A DNA stretch of 64,000 bases from Chrysomallon squamiferum (taxonomy: Eukaryota; Animalia; Mollusca), in the NCBI GenBank assembly GCA_012295275.1, contig CM022676.1:17298001-17362000 (forward strand), read 5' to 3'. The notes beneath the pieces were generated by a model. The model worked only from the letters and a program-made list of their open reading frames with translations. It did no database searches and was not told the origin of the DNA. Shown piece after piece: positions 3,861 through 41,336 of the stretch (positions are counted from its first letter, which is position 1; each line of letters opens with the position of its first letter). A program made the translations under genes and the position numbers.

Positions 3861-3961
3861 GTCATATTTATTTTGACTATTTCGGGAACAATGCAGAAAT
3901 CTGTTCCAGGAGAAAAAAAAAAAGTGACGTCCTCCGAAATGACGTCCAAAAGAGATGGTAA
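3861..3961 (+). CDS. ZNFX1: Next ZNFX1 exon: remainder of a degenerate RZ-type finger; stops at TAA 3959-3961 as assembled
   Basis: Acceptor TTTGTTTTAG| at 3860. The phase-1 join gives GWLKCQAG-HIYFDYFGNNAEICSRRKKKSDVLRNDVQKRW*, which restores the W-x-KC-x-x-GHIY start of the ZNFX1/RNF213 RZ motif. Confidence 0.75.
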
Positions 3962-4910
3962 CAGTAAAGCGTCAGATGGAAATACTAACAATGTGGCTTC
4001 GGAGATAGATACTAACAGAACTTTGCCAGATAGGAATACTAACAGTAGGACATCACACAGAGATGCTAAAAGAAAGGCGAACGACACAGATACTAACAGT
4101 AGAGCGTCAGACAGAGAAACTAAGAAAAGGGCGACAAACAGAGATACTAACAGATGGATGTCAGACAGAGATACTAACAGATGGACGTCAGACACAGATA
4201 CTAACAGATGGATGTCAGACAGAGATACTAACAGATGGATGTCAGACACAGATACTAACAGTAGAGCATCACACAGAGATGCTAAAAGAAAGGCGAACGA
4301 TACAGATACTAACAGATGGATGTCAGACAGAGATACTAACAGATGGATGTCAGACAGAGATACTAACAGATGGATGTCAGACAGAGATACTAACAGATGG
4401 ACGTCAGACACAGATACTAACAGTAGAGCGTCAGACAGAGAAACTAAGAAAAGGGCGACAAACAGAGATACTAACAGATGGATGTCAGACAGAGATACTA
4501 ACAGATGGATGTCAGACAGAGATACTAACAGATGGATGTCAGACAGAGATACTAACAGATGGATGTCAGACAGAAATACTAACAGATGGATGTCAGACAG
4601 AGATACTAACAGATGGACGTCAGACACAGATACTAACAGTAGAGCGTCAGACAGAGAAACAAGAAAAGGGCGACAAACAGAGATACTAACAGATGGATGT
4701 CAGACAGAGATACTAACAGATGGATGTCAGACAGAGATACTAACAGATGGACGTCAGACACAGATACTAACAGTAGAGCGTCAGACAGAGAAACAAGAAA
4801 AGGGCGACAAACAGAGATACTAACAGATGGATGTCAGACAGAGATACTAACAGATGGACGTCAGACAGAGATAATAACAGATGGATGTCAGACAGAGATA
4901 CTAACAGTAG
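3950..4910 (+). repeat. 27-bp minisatellite (TCAGACAGAGATACTAACAGATGGATG; SDRDTNRWM) with higher-order blocks
   Basis: Roughly 30 or more units. Variant units (AGTAGAGCG..., AAGAAAAGGGCG...) recur in blocks. It explains the overlapping ORFs 3857-4627(-), 3873-4823, 4063-4689, 4697-4963 and 4831-5310. Confidence 0.95.
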
Positions 4911-5253
4911 GGGATCTCACAGCGATTATCGAGGAGAAGAGAGATTCAAGGATTATCCCATAGGAATTAAACCCAATGTTTATTTTAGACCAAAGACGAG
5001 CACCTATTATCGAGGACGAGAGAAATTGACGGATTATTCGAAAATTACATCAGAACTGGATTATCGAGTAACAGATACAGACAGGGATTATATCCAAGAA
5101 AAATCAGACAGTGTCTCCAGATTCAATTCTCCTAAAGCACACGACATTGTGACAAGGAAAAGAAAAAAGACTTTTCACACTGACATTGGAAACAGTCGAC
5201 AAATGAGCAGAGAAAAAAAGAGAATAAAGACAACAAATAATCATAATTATCAG
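4831..5253 (+). CDS. Possible low-complexity C-terminal tail of the ZNFX1-like gene (frame-disrupted upstream)
   Basis: An open frame continues the repeat frame into unique R/D/S/K-rich sequence. Candidate donor CAG|GTACTA at 5254 and polypyrimidine acceptor TTTTACAG| at 5444 give a terminal SYSK*. Confidence 0.4.
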
Positions 5254-5689
5254 GTACTAAACTCGATTTCTCGTAATATTTTCATACTACATATATACGT
5301 ATTATGTTAAATATATACGAATTTATACGTAAAACAGGTACGCACAAATACCATAATTTACGTTTTGGTTCTCAGTCAGTGAGAGTAGTGACTAATTTTA
5401 TTTTTCTTATTTTGATTTTGATTTTTTTATTTCTTATTTTACAGAGTTATTCAAAGTAAACATTTTAACCGAAAACTGAAATTTCAGCCTGGTTAATTTC
5501 TACCAAAAAGAACGACACAGCAACTGAGGAAAAGATTCAGACGATTTTGATTATGTCGGTGACGACGATGTGCATACAGTTGCTGCTGCTGATGATGATG
5601 ATGGTGATGAACACATTATTTCTTATAATATGCTTTTCATTTGAAGATGCGCTTCATATTTAATAACTACGTTTTGATTAAAACGCACT

Positions 5690-10287: not shown

Positions 10288-13200
10288 TTATCTATAACTG
10301 TCTTTACCACGATGCTCCTGTAAATACAAAATAATTTCCCTTTTGTTAAAATCAAACCTGCAACTCATAGCTTTATCTAGAGGAGTTTCACCATTGGAAT
10401 TAATAGCATTTACATCAACACCTTTCTCAATCAGTGCCATCACAATTTCTATATTTCCATTTTCAGCTGCTAAATGTAAAACAGAATTGTTATCTTTGTC
10501 TGTCAAATTAGGATCAGCTCCATGTTCCAGTAAATAAAGAACTACTTGATGGTTTTTATCATTCAAACACGGATCAAAGTAATTTTTTGTATACTTAACA
10601 GCTGTAAAAAGAGGAGTCTTACCTTGGCTGTTTTTAACATTTACATCAACATCTTTTTCAATCAGTGCCATCACAATTTCTATGTTTCCAGATTCAGCTG
10701 CTAAGTGTAAAACAGAATTGTTATTACTGTCTGTTAAATTAGGATCAGCTCCATGTTCCAGTAAATACAAAACTACTTCATATTTTTCATGATTCAGAGA
10801 TCGATTATATTCACTTTTATCATAATTAACAGATGTAAGAAGAGGCGTTTCACCTTTATTGTTTTTAACATTTACATCAACACCTTTTTCAATCAGTGCT
10901 GTCATAATTTCTATAATTCCATATTTAGCTGCAAAGTATAAAATGGAATTGTTATCTTTGTCTGTTAAATTAGGATACGCTCCATGCGCCCATAAACACA
11001 AAACAATTTCCCTTTTCTTATAACCAAACCTGTAACTCATAGCTTTATCCAGAGGAGCCTCACCATTGGAATTAATAACATTTACATCAACACCTTTTTC
11101 AATCAGTGCCATCACAATTTCTGTATTTCCATATTTAGCTGCTAAGTGTAAAACAGAATTGTTATCATTGTCTGTTAAATTAAGGTCAGCTCCATGTTCT
11201 AGTAAATAAAAAGCTACTTTACATTTTTCCTCATTCAGATATGGATCAAAGTCATTTTCCACATAATTAACAGCTGTAAAAAGAGGAGTCTTACCTTGGC
11301 TGTTTTTGACATTTACATCAACACCTTTTTCAGTGAGTGCCATCACAATTTCTACATTTCCACATTTAGCTGCTAAGTGTAAAACAGAATTGTTATCATT
11401 GTTTGTTAAATTAGGATCTGCTCCATGTTCCAGTAAAATAAGGACTACTTTACATATTTCATCATTCAGAGATGGATTATATTCATCTTCCTCATAATTA
11501 ACAGCTTTTAAAAGAGGGGTTTCACCTTTATTGTTTTTAACATTTACATCAACATCTTTTTCAATCAGTGCTATCACAATTTCTGTATTTCCACATTCAG
11601 CTGCTAAGTGTAAAACAGAGTTGTTATCTTTGTCTGTTAAATTAGCATCAGCTCCATGTTCCAGTAAATACAAAACTACTTCAGCTTTTTCATCATTCAG
11701 ATATGTTTTAAATTCACCTTCATCATATTTAAGAGCTACGGTAAGTGCAGTTTCACCTCTGTTGTTTTTAATATTTACATCTGCACCTTTTTCATACATT
11801 GCTGTCACAATTTCTATATCTCCACATACAGCTGCTAAGTGTAAAACAGAACTGTTATCTTTGTCTGTTAAATTAGGATCAGCTCCATGTTCCAGTAAAT
11901 ATAAAACTACTTTACATTTTTCATCAGTCAGAAATGGATGAAAGTGATCTGCATCACAATTAACAGCTGTAAAAAGAGGAGTTTCACCTGTACTGTTTTT
12001 CATATTTACATCAAAGCCTTTTTCAATCAGTGCTGTCACAATTTCTATATTTCCATACTTAGCTGCTAAGTGTAAAACAGAATTGTCATTATTCTGTATT
12101 AAATTAGGATCAGCTCCATGTTCCAGTAAACAAAACATTACTTTACATTTTTCATCATTAACTGATGAATCATATTCATGTCCATCATATTTAAGAGCTA
12201 AAGCAAGAGGAGTTTCACCTTCACTGTTTTTGATATTTATATCAACACCTTTTTCAATCAGTGCTGTCACAATTTCAATATTTGCACATTTAACTGTTAA
12301 GTGTAAAACAGAATTGTTATAATTGTCAGTTAAATTAGGATCAGCTCCATATTCTAGTAAATACAAAACTACTTTACAGATTACATCAGTCAGAAATGGA
12401 TGTTTATCTTCATCTTCATCTTCATCATAATTAACAGATGTAAAAAGAGGAGTTTCACCTCTGTTGTTTTTAATATTTACATCAACACCTTTTTCAATCA
12501 GTGCTTTCACAATTTCAGTATTTTCTTCACTAGCTGCTAAGTGTAAGACAGAATTGCTATCATCATCTGTTAATTTAGGATCAGCTCCATGTTCCAGTAA
12601 ATACAAAACAACTTTGTTCTGTATATACTTAATAGCTGTAAAAAGAGGAGTTTTACCTCTGTTGTTTTTAATATTTACATCAACACCTTTTTCAATCAGT
12701 GCTTCCACAATTTCAATATTTTCTTCACTAGCTGCTAAGTGTAAAACAGAATTGCTATCATCATCTGTTAATTTAGGATCAGCTCCATGTTCCAGTAAAT
12801 ACAAAACAACTTTGTTCTGTATATACTTAATAGCTGTAAAAAGAGGAGTTTTACCTCTGTTGTTTTTAATATTTACATCAAAACCTTTTTCAATCAGTGC
12901 TTCCACAATTTCAATATTTTCTTCACTAGCTGCTAAGTGTAAAACAGAATTGCTATCATCATCTGTTAATTTAGGATCAGCTCCATGTTCCAGTAAATGC
13001 AAAACAACTTCGTTCTGTTTGTACTTAATAGCTGTAAAAAGAGGAGTTTCACCTCTGTTGTTTTTAATATTTGCATCAACACCTTTTTCAATCAGTGCTG
13101 TGACAATTTCAATATTTCCTTGATTAGCTGCTAAGTGTAAAACAGAATTGCTATCATCATCTGTTAAATTAGGATCAGCTCCATGTTCCAGTAAATACAA

Positions 13201-16200
13201 AAGAACTTCGTTCTGTTTATACTTAATAGCTGTAAAAAGAGGAGTTTCACCTCTGTTGTTTTTAATATTTGCATCAACACCTTTTTCAATCAGTGCTGTC
13301 ACAATTTCAATATTTCTTTGATTAGCTGCTAAGTGTAAAACAGAATTGCTATCATCATCTGTTAAATTAGGATCAGCTCCATGTTCCAGTAAATACAAAA
13401 CAACTTCGTTCTGTTTATACTTAATAGCTGTAAAAAGAGGAATTTCACCTCTGTTGCTTTTAATATTTACATCCACACCTGTTTCAAATAGTGTGGTCAC
13501 AGTTTCTATAATTCCATATTCAGCTGCTAAGTGTAAAACAGAATTGTTATCAGTTTCTGTTAAATTAAGATCAGCTCCTTGTTTTAGTAAGTATAAAGCT
13601 ATTTCTGGTCTGCTATGATTTAAGGAGACAAGAAGAGGCGTTTCCCCTTTAGTGTTCATTACATTTATATCAACACCTTTTTGTATTACTTTTTTCATTA
13701 CATCTATGTCAATTTGAGATGCTATGTGCAATGCTGAATTTTTTTCTTTGTCTGTTATATCAGTATCAGCACCATTTTCCAGTAACAACAAAGCTATTTC
13801 CTTTCTGTGTGTCACTGCTTTTACAGCTTCACGAAGTGGAGTTTCTCCCTCACTGTTTACCGCATTAACATCAGCATTTCTCTCTATCAGTGATTTTAAC
13901 ATATCTAAATCACCACGCAGAACTGAAATGTGGAGAGCTGTGTCTGAAGGCAACAATTTCAAACAAGGTCTATGTTTCAGTATAATTTTGTCACGAAGCA
14001 AGAACTTTGGGGTAGGTACCATACAGTTTAATGCAATTTGCTTTTCAAAGAACTGAATCAATTTCTCCTTGACAGCTACATTCACATTAGGATCAGCACC
14101 TTTATCAAGAAGACACTGAACAACATCTATACCGTTAAACATCACAGCTACTTTCAGTACTTCACTTTTCTTCCAGTTGTTCTCATCTGTATCATTTCGT
14201 CTCTGCTCAATGAGAAAATTCACTGTTTCAGTAGATCCCCACATTGCTGCTGCTAAAAGTACTTCATCTCTGTTCTCATCATTTAAACAATCAGGTTTCA
14301 GTTTTACTATTTCTTTTATAACATTTGAAGTACTCTGACCAGCTGCAATATTAGCAATATATTTAATTTTGTTTATTATTTCACTGGTAACCAGCTTCTT
14401 AAATAGATGTATGACAGAGTTTTTAAAACTTGTGTAACTTACTTGACTATGGAACTTAACCAATAACAGTTTCACAGCTTTTTCTTTCATTTCACTGTTG
14501 TTTTTCTCTTTGTCTACCATGTCAGCCAACAGACAGGCAATGTTCATGTTTTCTGAATAAATAGAAAGACATAACAAGTGGGAAAACAGAGTCAACTTCA
14601 TCTCCTTTTTATACTGTAACAATTGTTTCAGTATGGTAGCACTGTCTGTTTTAGAACATGCTGCTGCACTGAATGTATCAAATGTTGGAATGACACCTGA
14701 TTCTAGCAACGGTTTCACAATATATTCATCACCAAACAAACAAGAAATATCCAAAAGTTCTTTTTTTAGATATGTTAATTTCATTTTACACAGATTTTCT
14801 GCGAAAAATCGTGACAATGTTCTTAGTCCATTAACAATACACTCACTTGGAACAGATGTTGAATTTATTAATTTGTTTTCAACTTTCAAATCACTATCAA
14901 GAAGAGATGGTCTATTGCTGAATATTTCATTAGCAATGTTTATATATATGAATGATACATAAACAGTTCGAAAGTTTTTTTCAGAAACATCTATAAATCG
15001 TCTCCGATTTACATCTTGATGAATTCCACGTAGTCTTTGATGCAGTATTTCAGATGTTTTGCCATAAAAGTGTTTTTCCTCTGTCATATACTTCACAAAT
15101 TCTTCATCTTTCAGTGACGGATGTGAAATAATTTTTCTGAAATTGTCTGATGCCAGCAAATCAGTAAATCTGCGAGCAAGAACATCAAAGCAGTCAGGTG
15201 TCACAGTCATTGTAATGTGACTTTTGTTAGACACTCCAGGTGTCACAACATATTCTAACAACATGGAGACAGGGCACACTTCTAGCAACTCTGCTGCTTT
15301 CTCTGGAAACTCTGATGAAAAGATCAGAAACACAGAGTCAAACATTGACTGATGAATAAATGTATATTTATTGTCACAGCAGTTCAAGTAGGTACCACAC
15401 ATTACATCAGCTGTTTTCTTTATATCTGTGAGATCTGTGTTTTTTACACGCTGACAGACTCGCTCTAGCAGCCTTATTAATTTCATTATTTCACTGTCAA
15501 TGCCATTTTTAAATGGGCACAGTGAATCAATGTTGAGACTGCCTTCCTGAAACATTATCAGCAGTAGAACCAGGTAATTAATTTGTGAAGATTTATCATT
15601 TTTCAAATTTTCCAGCCCTTGTCTCAGATAGTCTACAGGTTTCTCAAAAAACTTGACTCCTCTTTTTTGTGCATCGCTTGAATTAAAATAATAGACACAC
15701 ACCTGAGGAAATCCTAACTCTTTACATGAATTGCAAATAACACAACACCTTATATCAGTTTTATCCATTGTAACATTCTTTTGTTCAAGGTATCTGTTTA
15801 GAATTTGTTCTTTTTCATCATAATCCAGACAACAATCATCACTCTGCAGATCAAGAACATGTTTCTCATTAAACAGACCAAATTCCTTCAAACTAGTTTC
15901 ACTTTCTGAAAATATTTGTTTTCTTAAAGTAATAATGCATTTCAGAGAACCTTCCTGAACAAGATTCCAGATCACTGGAAATTTGAGTTTCCATGATTCT
16001 ATAAAATCTGAAACAAGATTAGTCTTACCAAATATATCATCAATGAGAACAACACATTTCTTATTTTCAGATAGAGAGATGTCACTGAAACCAGTGTGAT
16101 GAGTCAGCAAGTAAGATTCTCTTTTTTCTTCATTTTCTATCTGTCTCATCATTCTCAAAGCAAGAGTTGTCTTTCCTGAACCTGGACTTCCTACTACAAT

Positions 16201-16301
16201 CACAACACCGTTCTGCTTCAAAAGTTCAACACCTCTTTTCTCTGCTCTTGTTTCAACATAGACTCTCCAGTCAACTGAGTTTAACACTGACCTGGTACAC
16301 T
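10288..16301 (-). CDS. NLR-like STAND NTPase (nSTAND3-type) with long ankyrin-repeat array; ~6-kb terminal exon
   Basis: Uninterrupted ~2000-codon frame. Motifs: YVETR, Walker A VIVVGSPGSGKT (16191-16168), Walker B CVVLIDDIFG, IITLR, GFPQ, FIHQSMFD. A helical region and more than 30 ankyrin repeats (GETPL..., NSVLHLAA...GADPN) follow. The acceptor GATACAG| places the exon start at 16301 (phase 1), so the GTG at 16287 is not the start. Confidence 0.93.
10310..13600 (-). repeat. High-identity ankyrin array: 198-bp double-ANK units, ~230-bp units with loop insertion, 672-bp higher-order duplication
   Basis: Period 198 (e.g. 12601 vs 12799). Period 672 (GAGGAGTCTTACCTTGGCTG at 10611 and 11283; AGCTTTATC at 10369 and 11041). 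Confidence 0.92.
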
Positions 16302-16569
16302 CTGTATCACAGCATTAAAAAACAAACCATCTATTATTAATTATTTTGAACATATTTTACCATTTAGATATAAAAAATATAATTTTTAACTGGTTATCAG
16401 AGGTGAACTTCTTAAAAGAAAAATGCAATAGTTTGTTTCATAAGTTGAGTTCAGCAGAATTTAATAAAGATAAAACGTTGTCACAATTTTAGATGGTATA
16501 AAAGTAACGAGATGATTATTTTGTTATTTATGAATATCTTTGGAAATTGTACAAATAATAATAATAATA

Positions 16570-16618
<49 letters not shown>

Positions 16619-16621
16619 TAC

Positions 16622-16654
16622 CTTTGATATTGGATGCTTTCACATCAGTCTTTG
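16622..16654 (-). CDS. 33-nt coding exon of the STAND-ANK gene (TKTDVKASNIKE across junctions)
   Basis: Minus strand ATTATTTCAG|CAAAGACT...ATCAAAG|GTATTT; phase 1-1, in frame with the large exon. Confidence 0.7.
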
Positions 16655-17363
16655 CTGAAATAATATAGAAATAAAACAAGTAAATTTGTGTTATTGATGA
16701 TGAGTAAAAGAAATGATTAAAGTGATCTGTACAAGTACAGTAAACATGTAACATTATTATTAAATCTTTGTTATTTATTTTACTACAATTATTACTACTA
16801 TTACCAAAACTACTGCTGTTGTTTCTTATCACTAATGCTATTTATTTATTGTTATTGTTCATATTATTATTACTATTATTACGATTATTATTATTATTAT
16901 TATTATTATTGTTGTTGTTGTTGTTGTTGTTGTTGTTTTTGTTGTTGTTGGTGGTGGTGGTGGTGTATGATTATTGTTGTTGTTGTACCTTCTTCTGTAT
17001 ATTAGTATGCACATGTAATAATAATGACAGGTAGATAGTCCTGTTTAATTCATGTATATATTAACAGTTTAAGATTAAACTCTAGTTCAGTTCAGCATAC
17101 ATAAACTGTGTCACTGTCTGAACATATTTGTGTGTGTGCAATGCATGTCTGCATATATACATGTATGTGTATGTATGTGTTCAGTGTATGTGTTATATAG
17201 GTATATATTTAAATATGCTTGTATGTATTATGTATATGTATGTATGAGCATGTTTCTTTGTTGTTCAGGTCACACTGATAGAAATGTACTAATGTCTACT
17301 GTGATGTGTATTCTGTTATTTATTAAGCAGGTAGAAAAAAGGAAACTTTCAGTTTTAACTTAC

Positions 17364-17477
17364 TGATGTTAATAACTTGATTTCCAAACACAACATTCCT
17401 ACAATTAGACACAGCCTGGTAATTCTGAACTGTGTTGATATTTACACTGTGTTCTACCACTGGTTGTGTTCTTCCAG
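17364..17477 (-). CDS. 114-nt coding exon of the STAND-ANK gene encoding a RHIM-like, N/Q/V/I-rich segment
   Basis: Minus strand TTTTTACTCAG|CTGGAAGA...AACATCA|GTAAGT; phase 1-1, no stop; GRTQPVVEHSVNINTVQNYQAVSNCRNVVFGNQVINI. Confidence 0.8.
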
Positions 17478-17814
17478 CTGAGTAAAAATAAATTATATAA
17501 ATTCACAAATTAAACAAATAATGTTTTAATCCATTCTTATCTACATATAGAGATATGACAGTGTACAGTATTAATACAATGTGTCCTAGCAGTATTAATG
17601 AATATAACAATAAAACTGTATGTTTTAATGAATGTGTTTGATATTGTTAACTAATTATGCATAAAATAATCAAACAATGACAAGTGGTTTTTCTAACAAA
17701 AAGCAGACAAAATCTTTCAATTGTTAATTTATTATAAATATAAAACAAACCAAGTATCACTTTACAAAGAATTGATATACTTCATTAATAAAGATATAAA
17801 TAATGGTGTCATAC

Positions 17815-17857
17815 TTTCTGAGGAACAAATTTCTGAACTCGCTTTTTTGTCATCCAT
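17815..17857 (-). CDS. Probable start-codon exon of the STAND-ANK gene (MDDKKASSEICSSE); exon spans 17862-17815
   Basis: Minus strand TTTTTACATTTCAG|CCAATATGGATGAC...TCAGAAA|GTATGA. ATG at 17857 has A at -3 and G at +4. The phase-1 end joins the next exon in frame. Further upstream coding exons are not excluded. Confidence 0.65.
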
Positions 17858-17895
17858 ATTGGCTGAAATGTAAAAAATAACATAATTTTAAAATA

Positions 17896-18050
17896 GAAGA
17901 AAGAAAATAAATGTTGTATTCACTGTTGTACGGTGTCAGACATAAAATTAAGGAAAATTCAGATAAGAAAAAAAAAAAAAAGAAGAAAAAAAAAAAAAAC
18001 ATTCCCACCACTTCATGGTCTAATTTCCCACAGACAGTGCGTACTATTTC
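17896..18050 (-). mobile_element. Degenerate Nin-type (mollusc) SINE remnant
   Basis: GAAGAAAGAAAATAAATGTT...TACGGTGTCAGACATA...CACTTCATGG...CCCACAGACAG resembles, from memory, the reverse strand of the gastropod Nin-domain SINE. It shares motifs with the reverse complement of 46545-46625. Confidence 0.55.
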
Positions 18051-19779
18051 ACATATCAGGTTCAGCTTTTCAAAAAAACTAAAACAGCTCAGACTGCATA
18101 CTCAACTTTTGTTCTATAAATATATTCCTGAAAGTATTTTAAAATAACAAACATCCTCATATTGTAAATAGTGATGTTAGATTGTTATATAAAAATAGTC
18201 ATGAAAACTTAATTATTACAATACTGCTAGTGTGAAAACTTAATACTGTTGTAATTTATTACTCTTACATCACATTAGAATCATTTCACTCAAACATTTT
18301 ATAATAATTAACTGATAATTATCATAAAGCATTTGTAGGATGTTTTCTCAATTGCAATACTAAATGATGTGAGTTATGAGTCCAGCTTTGAATCAGCTGG
18401 AGAACATTTGGGGAGAGTTAGCAGTTTTGTAGCACTGGGACTGACTTTAGTTGACCATTTGACAAATCCAACATTTCACCCTGAGGATGGGTTGGATGTT
18501 TACTTACCATTGGTGATTGATCCCTTTACAACAAATGTAATCTAAACACTCAAAGTAGCATTTTCTTAAACTATTTTAACTCTGCAGCTCCATACTTTGG
18601 AATGATAATTTTTGAAATAAACAGTACTTGGTAATTATGTGACAATAGTGTTATTAAAAAAAAAAAAAAAAAAAATAAAAAATCTTATATCCAGTACTGC
18701 GGTGCTTAACATTTTTTCAGATGTATATTATATTACCATTCTCCTGAGTTCACCTTTAGTAATCTACTCATATTTATATGTATATGTATGCAGTTTAATT
18801 CTTAAAGTATTTCATAATATATTTACTTATTTAGTACCATAAGAAGACTACAATTAAAACATGTGGGATAAGAACAAGTGCAATACTTTATATCAGGGTG
18901 ACAAGACTGTTATATCTGTCAAATAAATAGTATAATTATTCTTATCTGTTGTGTCTGCTTGCAAAAACATACTTTGTGAATTTGTAATCTTGACCACTTG
19001 ATGATTTCATGTTAATGTACAGACACATTTCTTGTGTGGCTGTGTTTAAAACTGTCATTTACAAACCACCAATACAGTAATGATATCTATAAATAGTACA
19101 GCATTCAACCATTAAAAAACTTTCTTTATTTGCTATTTATTTTTAGAGATGATTTCTCAATGCCATATATACAGGTATTTGAAAGAAAAAAGAAAAACAT
19201 ACATATATTAATGTTATTTCATGCAGTTAAGCATTATTCTACAATAATTATAATAATTTATTAATGTTTTATCATATATTCATTCACTTTAATGTAAATG
19301 GTTTTTCAAAATAATGATAACAGTCACTACTCTATTTGTATTTAAATAGAAATCAGGTAGAACCGTCTAAAAATAAAATAGCTAATTTAAAAAAAAGTGA
19401 ATAAATAATAACTTATTAAATAAGAGCTGTAATAGGGTACTACTAATAATAATACATATAAAAACATACTAAAGACCAGGTTAAAATGTTTATGTGCTTG
19501 TGGTATTTAGGACGATGTGACGAATTCACTGTTAAGACATTGTGCACATAAGTGCAGAAAATAAAAAATAAAAAAACAAACATTTGTCTATATTGTGAGA
19601 AGCTAAATAATTTCAATAACGGCGCTACATACAAACACAATTACAAAAACGGAATTAGTTTCATTAAACAAAATAGAAAGGAATTCGAAAATAATACAGT
19701 ATATGAGATAATATTATTATTACATTTTTCATCCGTAACATCCATATACGAGAATTGTAAATAAAATTTCGCTCACAAC

Positions 19780-38679: not shown

Positions 38680-39761
38680 CACTTGATGACGTGTAAAATA
38701 TCTGACGTCACTCGCGTGTTTATCAGTGGAGGATTTTGAGAACCAAAAGTACACAAAGCAGAAATAAAACAAGTCGGCCATATTGAAAGTCTATGATATT
38801 TTTATTTTATTATGTTTTAACGATTCCAGTGTCCTTAATTTATTACTAAATATATCAGAGTTTGTTCTCTAACAAATAGATTATTTAAGTTTTTAAACTG
38901 AAATTAAACTAGGTTACGTGTATCCTGACTTTAGTATGCTGTTATTATTATTGTTAATAGTAGTAGTAGTAGTAGCAGTAGTAACATCTTTACTTCTGTT
39001 TCTGTTACTACCCTAGTAGAGGCATTATTTCTTATTGATATATTTCGCTATTTATTGCTTACTTTATTTCATTTTGTTTTATTTTATTTTAATTTTTCAT
39101 TTATTCTTAGATTGGTGATTGCGGTGATCTACAGCAGTTGAGTCGACAGAGAGAAAATAGTCGCTTAAATAAATTGTCCATCAGCAAGTTTAAATTAGAA
39201 CGTATTTTAAATTGTTTTCTATTTCAAAAATATCGCATCCTGCTATTCTTTTTTTCTTTATTAATATTTTTTGTTCTTTAGTGTTTCTTTTTAGATCTGT
39301 CACTGAGTGATAATTTGGCTGACTTTTCGAGAAGTAAATTGTTATAAATGACCACAAGTACATTGCGATATGAAAACCGTTTCTCTCACAGTGAAATATT
39401 TCTTACCTGACTGACCACACACCTCTGTTTATAATAATAATGATAATAATAATAATTCTTTGTGTCTTCGTAATCAGCATAGTAATCATTACCATAACCA
39501 TAAGGTTTTTCTTTTTTATCCTTTATCTATCCGATGTTTTTCTTTCTTTCCTTATCTTTTATTTATTTATTTATTGATTTATTTATTTTTAGATCTCTGA
39601 TCTCAGTGTTCAGTAGTAGAGGCGTTAAACAAAAAGTAGTCGGATTTTAGAAATTATTTTGATTAATTTTTTATATAAAAAGTGTTTGTTTCGGTTTTGC
39701 AATATGTCCATGTACAGGTCATATGTACAAGGAAATATTTGTAAATTATATTTAGTATGAC

Positions 39762-39802
<41 letters not shown>

Positions 39803-39825
39803 CATCCTCTGTTTCTAGTGAAAAC

Positions 39826-41336
39826 ATGGCCACCTCAACTGCAGTCTCAAGTTGGCAGACAGGGAAGAATCTGATAAAATGCATTGAGCACGTTTTTCTT
39901 ACAAAAACTCACACGGACGTCAGATTTTTAGTTGGGGAACATCAATCTGCTGTCGATGCTCACCGATTCATACTCATTATTCGAAGCGAAGTTTTCAGTC
40001 AGATGTTGACTGGAGAACTTCGCGAAAAATCAGATAGTGTGATATCTGATGTGAAGGCAGAGACCTTCTCAGAGTTTTTAAAGTATGTTAAAACACACAC
40101 ACACACACACACACACAGATACACACAGGCATAGAAACACACGTACGAACCCACTGAGGAAGAGAGACATACATACAGACAAAAACGTTGATAACAATAC
40201 AGTTTTTGTTAGTAATCTAATTATTTTCTAATTAATTAATCTCACATGATTATCTCTCGTTTTAAAGTCTTACTCTATTTTTTTTACACAGATATCTTTA
40301 CACGGATGACGTCTTCCTAACAGGCGACAACGTCACCAGTATGCTGTATCTATCGAGGAAGTACATCGTCACGACACTGGAAGATCAGTACGTACGCTAT
40401 TTGGAGTCGTCGTTGTCGTCACCGAATGCGTGCGTCGTGCTGGAACAAGCTCACCTGTTTGATGAACTTGATCTAAGGAAAAAAACTCTGGACTTCATTT
40501 TGAAAAATGGCGACGAAGTTTTGAAGTCAGATGAAGTCACCGATCTTTGTCACGAATGTCTGGTTGAGATCGTACGATCAGACGAACTGACAGCAGACGA
40601 GAAAAATGTTTTTGAAGCCGCTGTGAAGTGGGCTGACAGCGCGTGCAGGAAGCAAGGAAGAGAGACGAATGAAAAAAACATGCGCTAAGCACTGGGAGAG
40701 GTCGTGAAGCACGTGCGTTATCCATTACTCGATCAGACGTATTTTCTAAAACACGTGACACCTACTCACATACTCACTGAGACAGAAGAACTCAAGATTT
40801 CGAAACACTGGGTGAGCAGTGATGAAGATGTTTCACCTTTTAACTCAAACAAGAAGACTGCACTGAAAACACAGATTAAAATAAACAGGTTTGATGACGA
40901 TGATTACTACTGGACATATTCTAGTGAAGAAGATGAAGCCATTACTTTCTCTGTCAACAAAAACGCTTTACTTCGCGGATTTCAGTTGTACGGTGAACGT
41001 GAACCACGAAACTACGACGTCAGCGCCTTCGTCACGGACACAAGAACAGACGAAATACTGTACGGGTCTACACTGACACAGAGATATGAACACGTGTCTG
41101 ACGTGTATGACGTCGTGTTCAGACGTCCAGTGAAGATTACGAAAGACACTGAGTACAGCTTGTTTGTTAATTTTAAGGGAGACTACTCATTATATGGAGT
41201 TGGAGGTGAATCAGAAATTGTTGTAGACTCTTTTGTTTGTAGATTTTCTGAGTCACACAAATCTAAACACAGTGACAGACACCTTAGTACATGGGTGACA
41301 CACGGACAAATACCTGCTTTGTTATTTTTAGTGTAA
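39826..41336 (+). pseudogene. BTB/POZ-BACK-PHR protein (BTBD1/2/3/6 family-like); coding exons 39826-40082 and 40292-41336; in-frame TAA at 40686-40688
   Basis: Exon 1 MATSTAVSSWQ...TDVRFLVG...AHRFILIIRSEVF...FSEFLK. Phase-2 intron AA|GTATGT...ACACAG|A gives K-YLYTDD. The BACK domain has EKNVFEAAVKWA, then MR*ALGEVVKHVRYP in the same frame. The PHR domain ends GQIPALLFLV*. Confidence 0.88.

Follow-up and report, generated by a model that had tools for sequence, protein, structure and literature searches.

An exon-encoded RHIM/cRHIM-like motif in the predicted N-terminus of a molluscan nSTAND3-ankyrin protein

Amyloid signaling from the N-terminal end of NOD-like receptors (NLRs) has been shown in fungi and filamentous bacteria; for animals, the literature searched offers a prediction in amphioxus only. 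In the accessible parts of the sources on NWD2/HET-S, PNT1/HELLP (PP motif) and bacterial BASS NLR/Bell, a beta-prone motif at the N-terminus precedes the NTPase of a signal transduction ATPase with numerous domains (STAND), which is followed by repeats (PMC7889193, PMC12881547). The amphioxus protein, Branchiostoma BF82280, combines a predicted RIP homotypic interaction motif (RHIM), NACHT and repeats, and Kajava 2014 described RHIMs standing in place of Death-fold domains in this way (PMC4262963), so the idea is not new for animals. Here we analyze a gene within a window of 64,000 nucleotides from the mollusc Chrysomallon squamiferum (GenBank GCA_012295275.1, contig CM022676.1, positions 17,298,001 to 17,362,000). 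Its predicted protein is built like an amyloid-signaling NLR, with an N-terminal motif, a STAND NTPase and C-terminal repeats, and the motif occupies a 114-nt exon of its own (17364..17477, minus strand). What is new is that a similar motif lies 57 to 111 residues before Walker A in nine of 85 nSTAND3 relatives, from both gastropods and bivalves.

The gene model comprises four exons on the minus strand (48, 114, 33 and 6014 nt), runs without stop codons and encodes 2067 amino acids. A polar 48-nt exon (17815..17862), placed by RNA joints and loose contig ends, contains a candidate start ATG at 17857. The motif exon (17477 to 17364 in reading direction) is flanked by a pyrimidine-rich CAG acceptor upstream and a GTAAGT donor downstream, and holds 37 complete codons plus a split codon at each end. 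It is followed by a 33-nt linker exon with its own splice sites (16622..16654) and by the last exon (10288..16301), whose 2008-amino-acid open frame encodes an nSTAND3 NTPase (PF20720, E=7.3e-26, 91.2 bits against a cut-off of 27.2), a helical region and an ankyrin array of about 30 repeats, 31 stretches being recognized by Pfam Ank. Walker A and Walker B are intact (model residues 101 and 148). In the predicted order of motif, nSTAND3 and ankyrins, the motif glycine is residue 46, 55 residues ahead of Walker A. Judged by its sequence, the gene falls within the nSTAND3 family; it encodes a predicted receptor-like STAND NTPase with ankyrin repeats and forms part of a multi-copy family. Paralogous transcripts extend further 5' in frame than the 48-nt exon; because a search for their upstream exon near the gene and in the rest of the window did not locate it, the start codon is uncertain. 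Upstream of the gene, at 21073-21041 (minus strand), good splice sites flank a further candidate exon of 33 nt, which is possibly 5' untranslated.

Five sequencing runs partly cover the gene, four of which (X1 to X4, one study) are RNA. All four have RNA contigs in which the 3' end of the motif exon meets the 33-nt exon (at 16654), and three have contigs joining the 5' end of the motif exon to the region of the 48-nt exon; loose contig ends connecting the 33-nt and large exons occur in all four, and contigs span 14100-16300 of the large one. A contig in X2 joins 17476 to 17815 with one letter between, as predicted for this copy. Since many contigs are paralogous (80-99% alike), splicing is demonstrated for the family. 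Run X5, of unrecorded kind, has no spliced joint among those listed and was not counted as support. An earlier, sequence-only reading had placed the 114-nt exon here and quoted two stretches of its peptide; exon, peptide (by translation) and inclusion in transcripts are all borne out. Over 10288-17900 (minus strand), several paralogous transcripts in X1 to X4 contain 21-24 additional bases, in frame, ahead of the motif exon, and paralogous transcripts (80-99% identity) also differ in their 5' exons, as in a large, fast-evolving family. RNA loose ends at 19007/19038 were considered as an exon of the gene and are read instead as a different transcript with a shared short element.

The fungal and bacterial amyloid NLRs, as far as their sources are accessible, differ from this protein in having NACHT or NB-ARC where it has nSTAND3; the host here is an animal, and amyloid is predicted only. 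An adjacent effector gene with a matching motif, as in the NWD2, PNT1 and BASS systems, was not found in the six frames of the 64 kb. BF82280 resembles the predicted protein as an animal STAND protein in which a predicted RHIM replaces a Death-fold domain, but it is of the NACHT type and from a cephalochordate, and the main text of Kajava 2014 (figures and supplement aside) names no mollusc or nSTAND3 protein (PMC4262963). The nSTAND3 family, including bacterial Avs5, shares the order effector, nSTAND3, repeats; according to the accessible part of the source, the Avs5 effector is a Sir2 enzyme, whereas the predicted protein has no more than a short motif there, within a polar tail (bioRxiv 10.1101/2025.07.08.663546).

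Mammalian RHIMs have the core (V/I)-Q-(V/I/L/C)-G (bioRxiv 10.64898/2026.02.19.706818, PMC12119088, each accessible in part). The available text on RIPK3 further states that deep mutagenesis maps nucleation to V450, I452, V458 and V460 and that a natural VQFG is functional. Arthropod cryptic RHIMs (cRHIMs) are described in the accessible text as VxxG with the glycine alone fixed, the core of Drosophila Imd being LHFG (PMC9387487, PMC10268257, PMC13506858). The motif exon encodes a beta-prone, uncharged-type stretch of 28 residues (17365..17448, minus strand) with 10 N/Q, 11 V/I/F/Y, one charged residue and no proline between polar flanks, and its core is VVFG (17394-17383). The residues at RIPK3 positions 450, 452, 458 and 460 are Q, V, V and F, so that three of the four nucleating hydrophobics, and the equivalent of Gly 461, are spaced as in the RHIMs of RIPK1, RIPK3, ZBP1 and TRIF. 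The peptide departs from them, within what the partly accessible sources describe, in the core (Val for Gln), in the Gln at the first tetrad position and in lacking a Pfam match and a kinase or death domain. With the cRHIMs of PGRP-LC, PGRP-LE and Imd it has in common the VxxG core, the fixed glycine and, as in Imd LHFG, a phenylalanine before it, a comparison made by definition and not by alignment; those motifs sit on a PGRP or a death-domain adaptor, this one on a cytosolic STAND-ankyrin protein.

How specific this likeness is depends on the pattern used. VxxG alone says little because 49% of shuffled peptides match it, and the three-of-four tetrad pattern is matched by 4.7% of shuffles. 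A fuller RIPK3-spacing pattern matches the peptide, compared with 0.065% of 20,000 shuffles, and occurs at one place when the window is translated in six frames (127,996 residues). The sequence-only reading had called the VVFG core a variant, which agrees with a peptide that fits the cRHIM definition and not the mammalian one. Its further suggestion, two pseudo-repeats forming a HET-s-like beta-arch, finds no footing: the best internal self-match has p = 0.34-0.84, and HET-s repeats are 26 residues long, so two do not fit in 37 residues. The peptide is thus neither a canonical RHIM nor a HET-s two-repeat domain, and falls within the loose cRHIM definition.

To place the motif in its family, we used a search of 1.84 billion representative proteins, which gave 1103 matches at E<=0.001 (150 of them listed). 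The closest proteins come from Gigantopelta aegis (36-44%) and Haliotis. In 85 of 155 stored relatives at least 25 residues lie upstream of the NTPase, and these upstream regions were tested. A relaxed RIPK3-spacing pattern matched five of the 85, where shuffles gave a mean of 0.44 (p=0.002), compared with two matches in 89,880 residues downstream; the strict pattern matched two of the 85 (p=0.004). We then built a profile from 11 homologous segments chosen by pattern and by eye. Left out in turn, nine of the 11 seeds passed at the floor of p=0.003; the other two (P0085 and P0102) failed and are not counted as carriers. The window peptide, held out of the profile, scored 22.4 bits (p<=0.003). 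The aligned segments share the fixed glycine, and the nine carriers, in which the glycine keeps the distance from Walker A given above, come from Gigantopelta and Haliotis among gastropods and Potamilus, Sinanodonta, Argopecten, Pecten and Ylistrum among bivalves. When selection was automated over 81 regions (the 85 minus four near-duplicates), the median leave-one-out score was 17.2, compared with a mean of 10.5 and a maximum of 13.9 for shuffled sets. Exceeding all 60 such sets, the family motif is real.

The motif recurs in the slot where other family members carry Death-fold or enzymatic effectors. Six of 16 proteins scanned, picked by eye, have a Death, DED, CARD, SAM, caspase or HEPN domain there, the DED match being below its cut-off. 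In a FastTree phylogeny of 86 rows, carriers fall in at least four well-supported clades, which needs at least four gains or losses, and they cluster no more than in shuffles; the position of P0013, on a long branch, is unreliable. One carrier (P0137) shares a clade with the DED-bearing P0103, and the tree, built from sequence, is compatible with module exchange within the nSTAND3 family. Two further clades (P0017/P0019/P0028/P0032 and P0030/P0039/P0042/P0043) have short beta-prone stretches of their own before the NTPase, without a profile score, which may be additional motif types.

We consider it probable, by analogy with NWD2 and PNT1, that the motif is an N-terminal amyloid-type (RHIM/cRHIM-like) signaling module on a molluscan NLR-like receptor. 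On the model of NWD2/HET-S and PNT1/HELLP, ligand sensing would fall to the ankyrin array, after which the nSTAND3 domain would oligomerize; the N-terminal motifs, thereby clustered, could stack as a cross-beta nucleus that templates a partner bearing a compatible motif, with NF-kB signaling or cell death as the outcome. One candidate partner would be a RIPK1-like kinase of molluscs; RHIM-bearing RIPK1 homologues are present in molluscs according to the accessible part of the source. A broader proposition can be put forward only tentatively, with the balance somewhat against it: that molluscs possess a widespread, undescribed class of amyloid-signaling NLR-like receptors, expanded nSTAND3-ankyrin families in which an exon-encoded cRHIM-like motif with clade-specific variants replaces Death-fold or enzyme effectors and signals to matching adaptors, in the manner of fungal and bacterial NLRs. 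Were it true, animals would have a family of amyloid motifs beyond the canonical RHIM. The literature search found no report of a RHIM-like motif in molluscan STAND or nSTAND3 proteins (subscription papers lay outside its coverage), and the accessible part of Kaur 2021 does not mention RHIM. The recurrent gastropod and bivalve motif supplies short peptides for testing amyloid signaling by animal NLRs, and is a pointer to how a large family of mollusc receptors, unstudied so far and of relevance to immunity in abalone, scallop and mussel, may signal.

A number of results weigh against an amyloid module. VVFG fails the mammalian core definition, so the strict pattern is false for the peptide, and with Gln at the first position of RIPK3's aliphatic tetrad the four-of-four pattern is false too. 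Pfam includes a RHIM model. Searches run without a positive control assigned the peptide to no Pfam family and, at E<=10 in Pfam, none of 12 segments to a RHIM family, and neither peptide nor alignment had a match in PDB or Atlas; a single Pfam match at E=0.054, in one of the 12 rows, was treated as chance. The RHIM-like reading in the sequence-only account is upheld in part, by the nSTAND3-ankyrin N-terminus and the similar motif in the relatives' slot, though the mammalian core is absent and these searches matched no RHIM profile. The pattern does not recur in the six frames of the 64 kb, which therefore show no neighboring partner. The choice of seeds and of residue classes was made with the data in view, and the positions after the glycine, which were left out of selection, give p=0.14. 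Of the 74 regions not used as seeds, only one came to p<=0.01; P0001, P0010 and P0011, which are among the closest relatives, did not score, and P0040 reached only p=0.03. In a greedy control, the back-score of the window peptide (21.8) was equalled by three of 40 shuffled seeds, and shuffled regions reached up to 24.8. Unseeded motif discovery by expectation maximization was unspecific, placing sites in nearly all regions, with p=0.115 for the peptide. Among paralogues, motif positions change from C to N and from V to A, and the variants listed further include N to S, S to N and N to K. The tie of the window peptide to the family motif, judged from sequence comparison, is less secure than the family motif itself. 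A peptide search of a large protein set returned one candidate and none at E<=10, and a metagenome scan for the pattern gave 139 matches, none confirmed.

Some of these points would equally suit a conserved short linear binding strand, which adds a beta-strand to a partner domain or folds back to restrain the receptor, with no amyloid involved. Any docking motif could recur at a similar distance from Walker A, and neither the missing RHIM profile match nor the missing mammalian core would trouble it. That distance nevertheless ranges from 57 to 111 residues, and the uncharged, N/Q-rich, proline-free make-up with a fixed glycine suits the interiors of beta-arcades (Kajava 2014, PMC4262963). In the AlphaFold2 model of a relative (P0014), the chain is folded from residue 28, and the motif lies in the tail of residues 1-28, unfolded, off the STAND and with a predicted local distance difference test score (pLDDT) below 50; as a single-chain model this is weak evidence against a restraining strand. 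A fold search with the same model returned, among the matches listed, ankyrin-repeat proteins only. On balance we regard a binding strand as unlikely.

A further reading takes the 28 residues for linker sequence, decayed or neutral: A+T-rich codons favor N, I, V and F, and the resemblance to RHIM and to a few relatives would stem from selection by eye. G+C around the motif exon is 27%, VxxG is as frequent in shuffles as noted, and both unseeded discovery and the greedy control leave the peptide not clearly separated from controls. Near-full-length paralogous pieces among those listed differ at 5-20 of about 110 letters. Counting for the amyloid module, indels in the motif exon, among those listed, are in frame (one of 9 nt; three 1-nt losses of equal depth, apparently on one contig). 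Set against neutrality are the single occurrence of the full pattern in the same A+T-rich window, the standing of the family motif above all 60 shuffled-region controls and the enrichment of the pattern upstream relative to downstream in relatives. A neutral linker seems to us rather improbable.

That the motif exon is an alternatively spliced switch, whose skipping would leave an in-frame receptor without the motif, is compatible with an amyloid module and suits both the open 2029-amino-acid skipped form and the cRHIM-less isoforms known for Rhodnius PGRP-LC/LA, but it is very unlikely, as none of the 10 RNA-contig joints listed from the four runs of one study skips the exon (seven are exon-exon joints, all including it, and three lie within introns). 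Contigs lose rare forms, so rare skipping could go unseen. The sequence-only reading had proposed a skipped, signaling-dead isoform, which was not seen, and had attached meaning to the symmetry of the exon; the 48- and 33-nt neighbors are likewise phase 1-1, so symmetry does not single out the motif exon.

Elsewhere in the window, a BTB-BACK-PHR gene of at least two exons lies at 39745-41336 on the plus strand (Pfam BTB, BACK and PHR). Its frames 40266-40688 and 40689-41336 are in register with one stop codon between them, and the copy may be broken or miscalled. Open frames of a short charged repeat unit, with no Pfam match, occupy 3861-5310 (plus strand). A tandem array of a 59-bp unit runs from 26480 to about 27350, with 96% matches and at least 8.9 copies counted to 27000, beyond which it continues.
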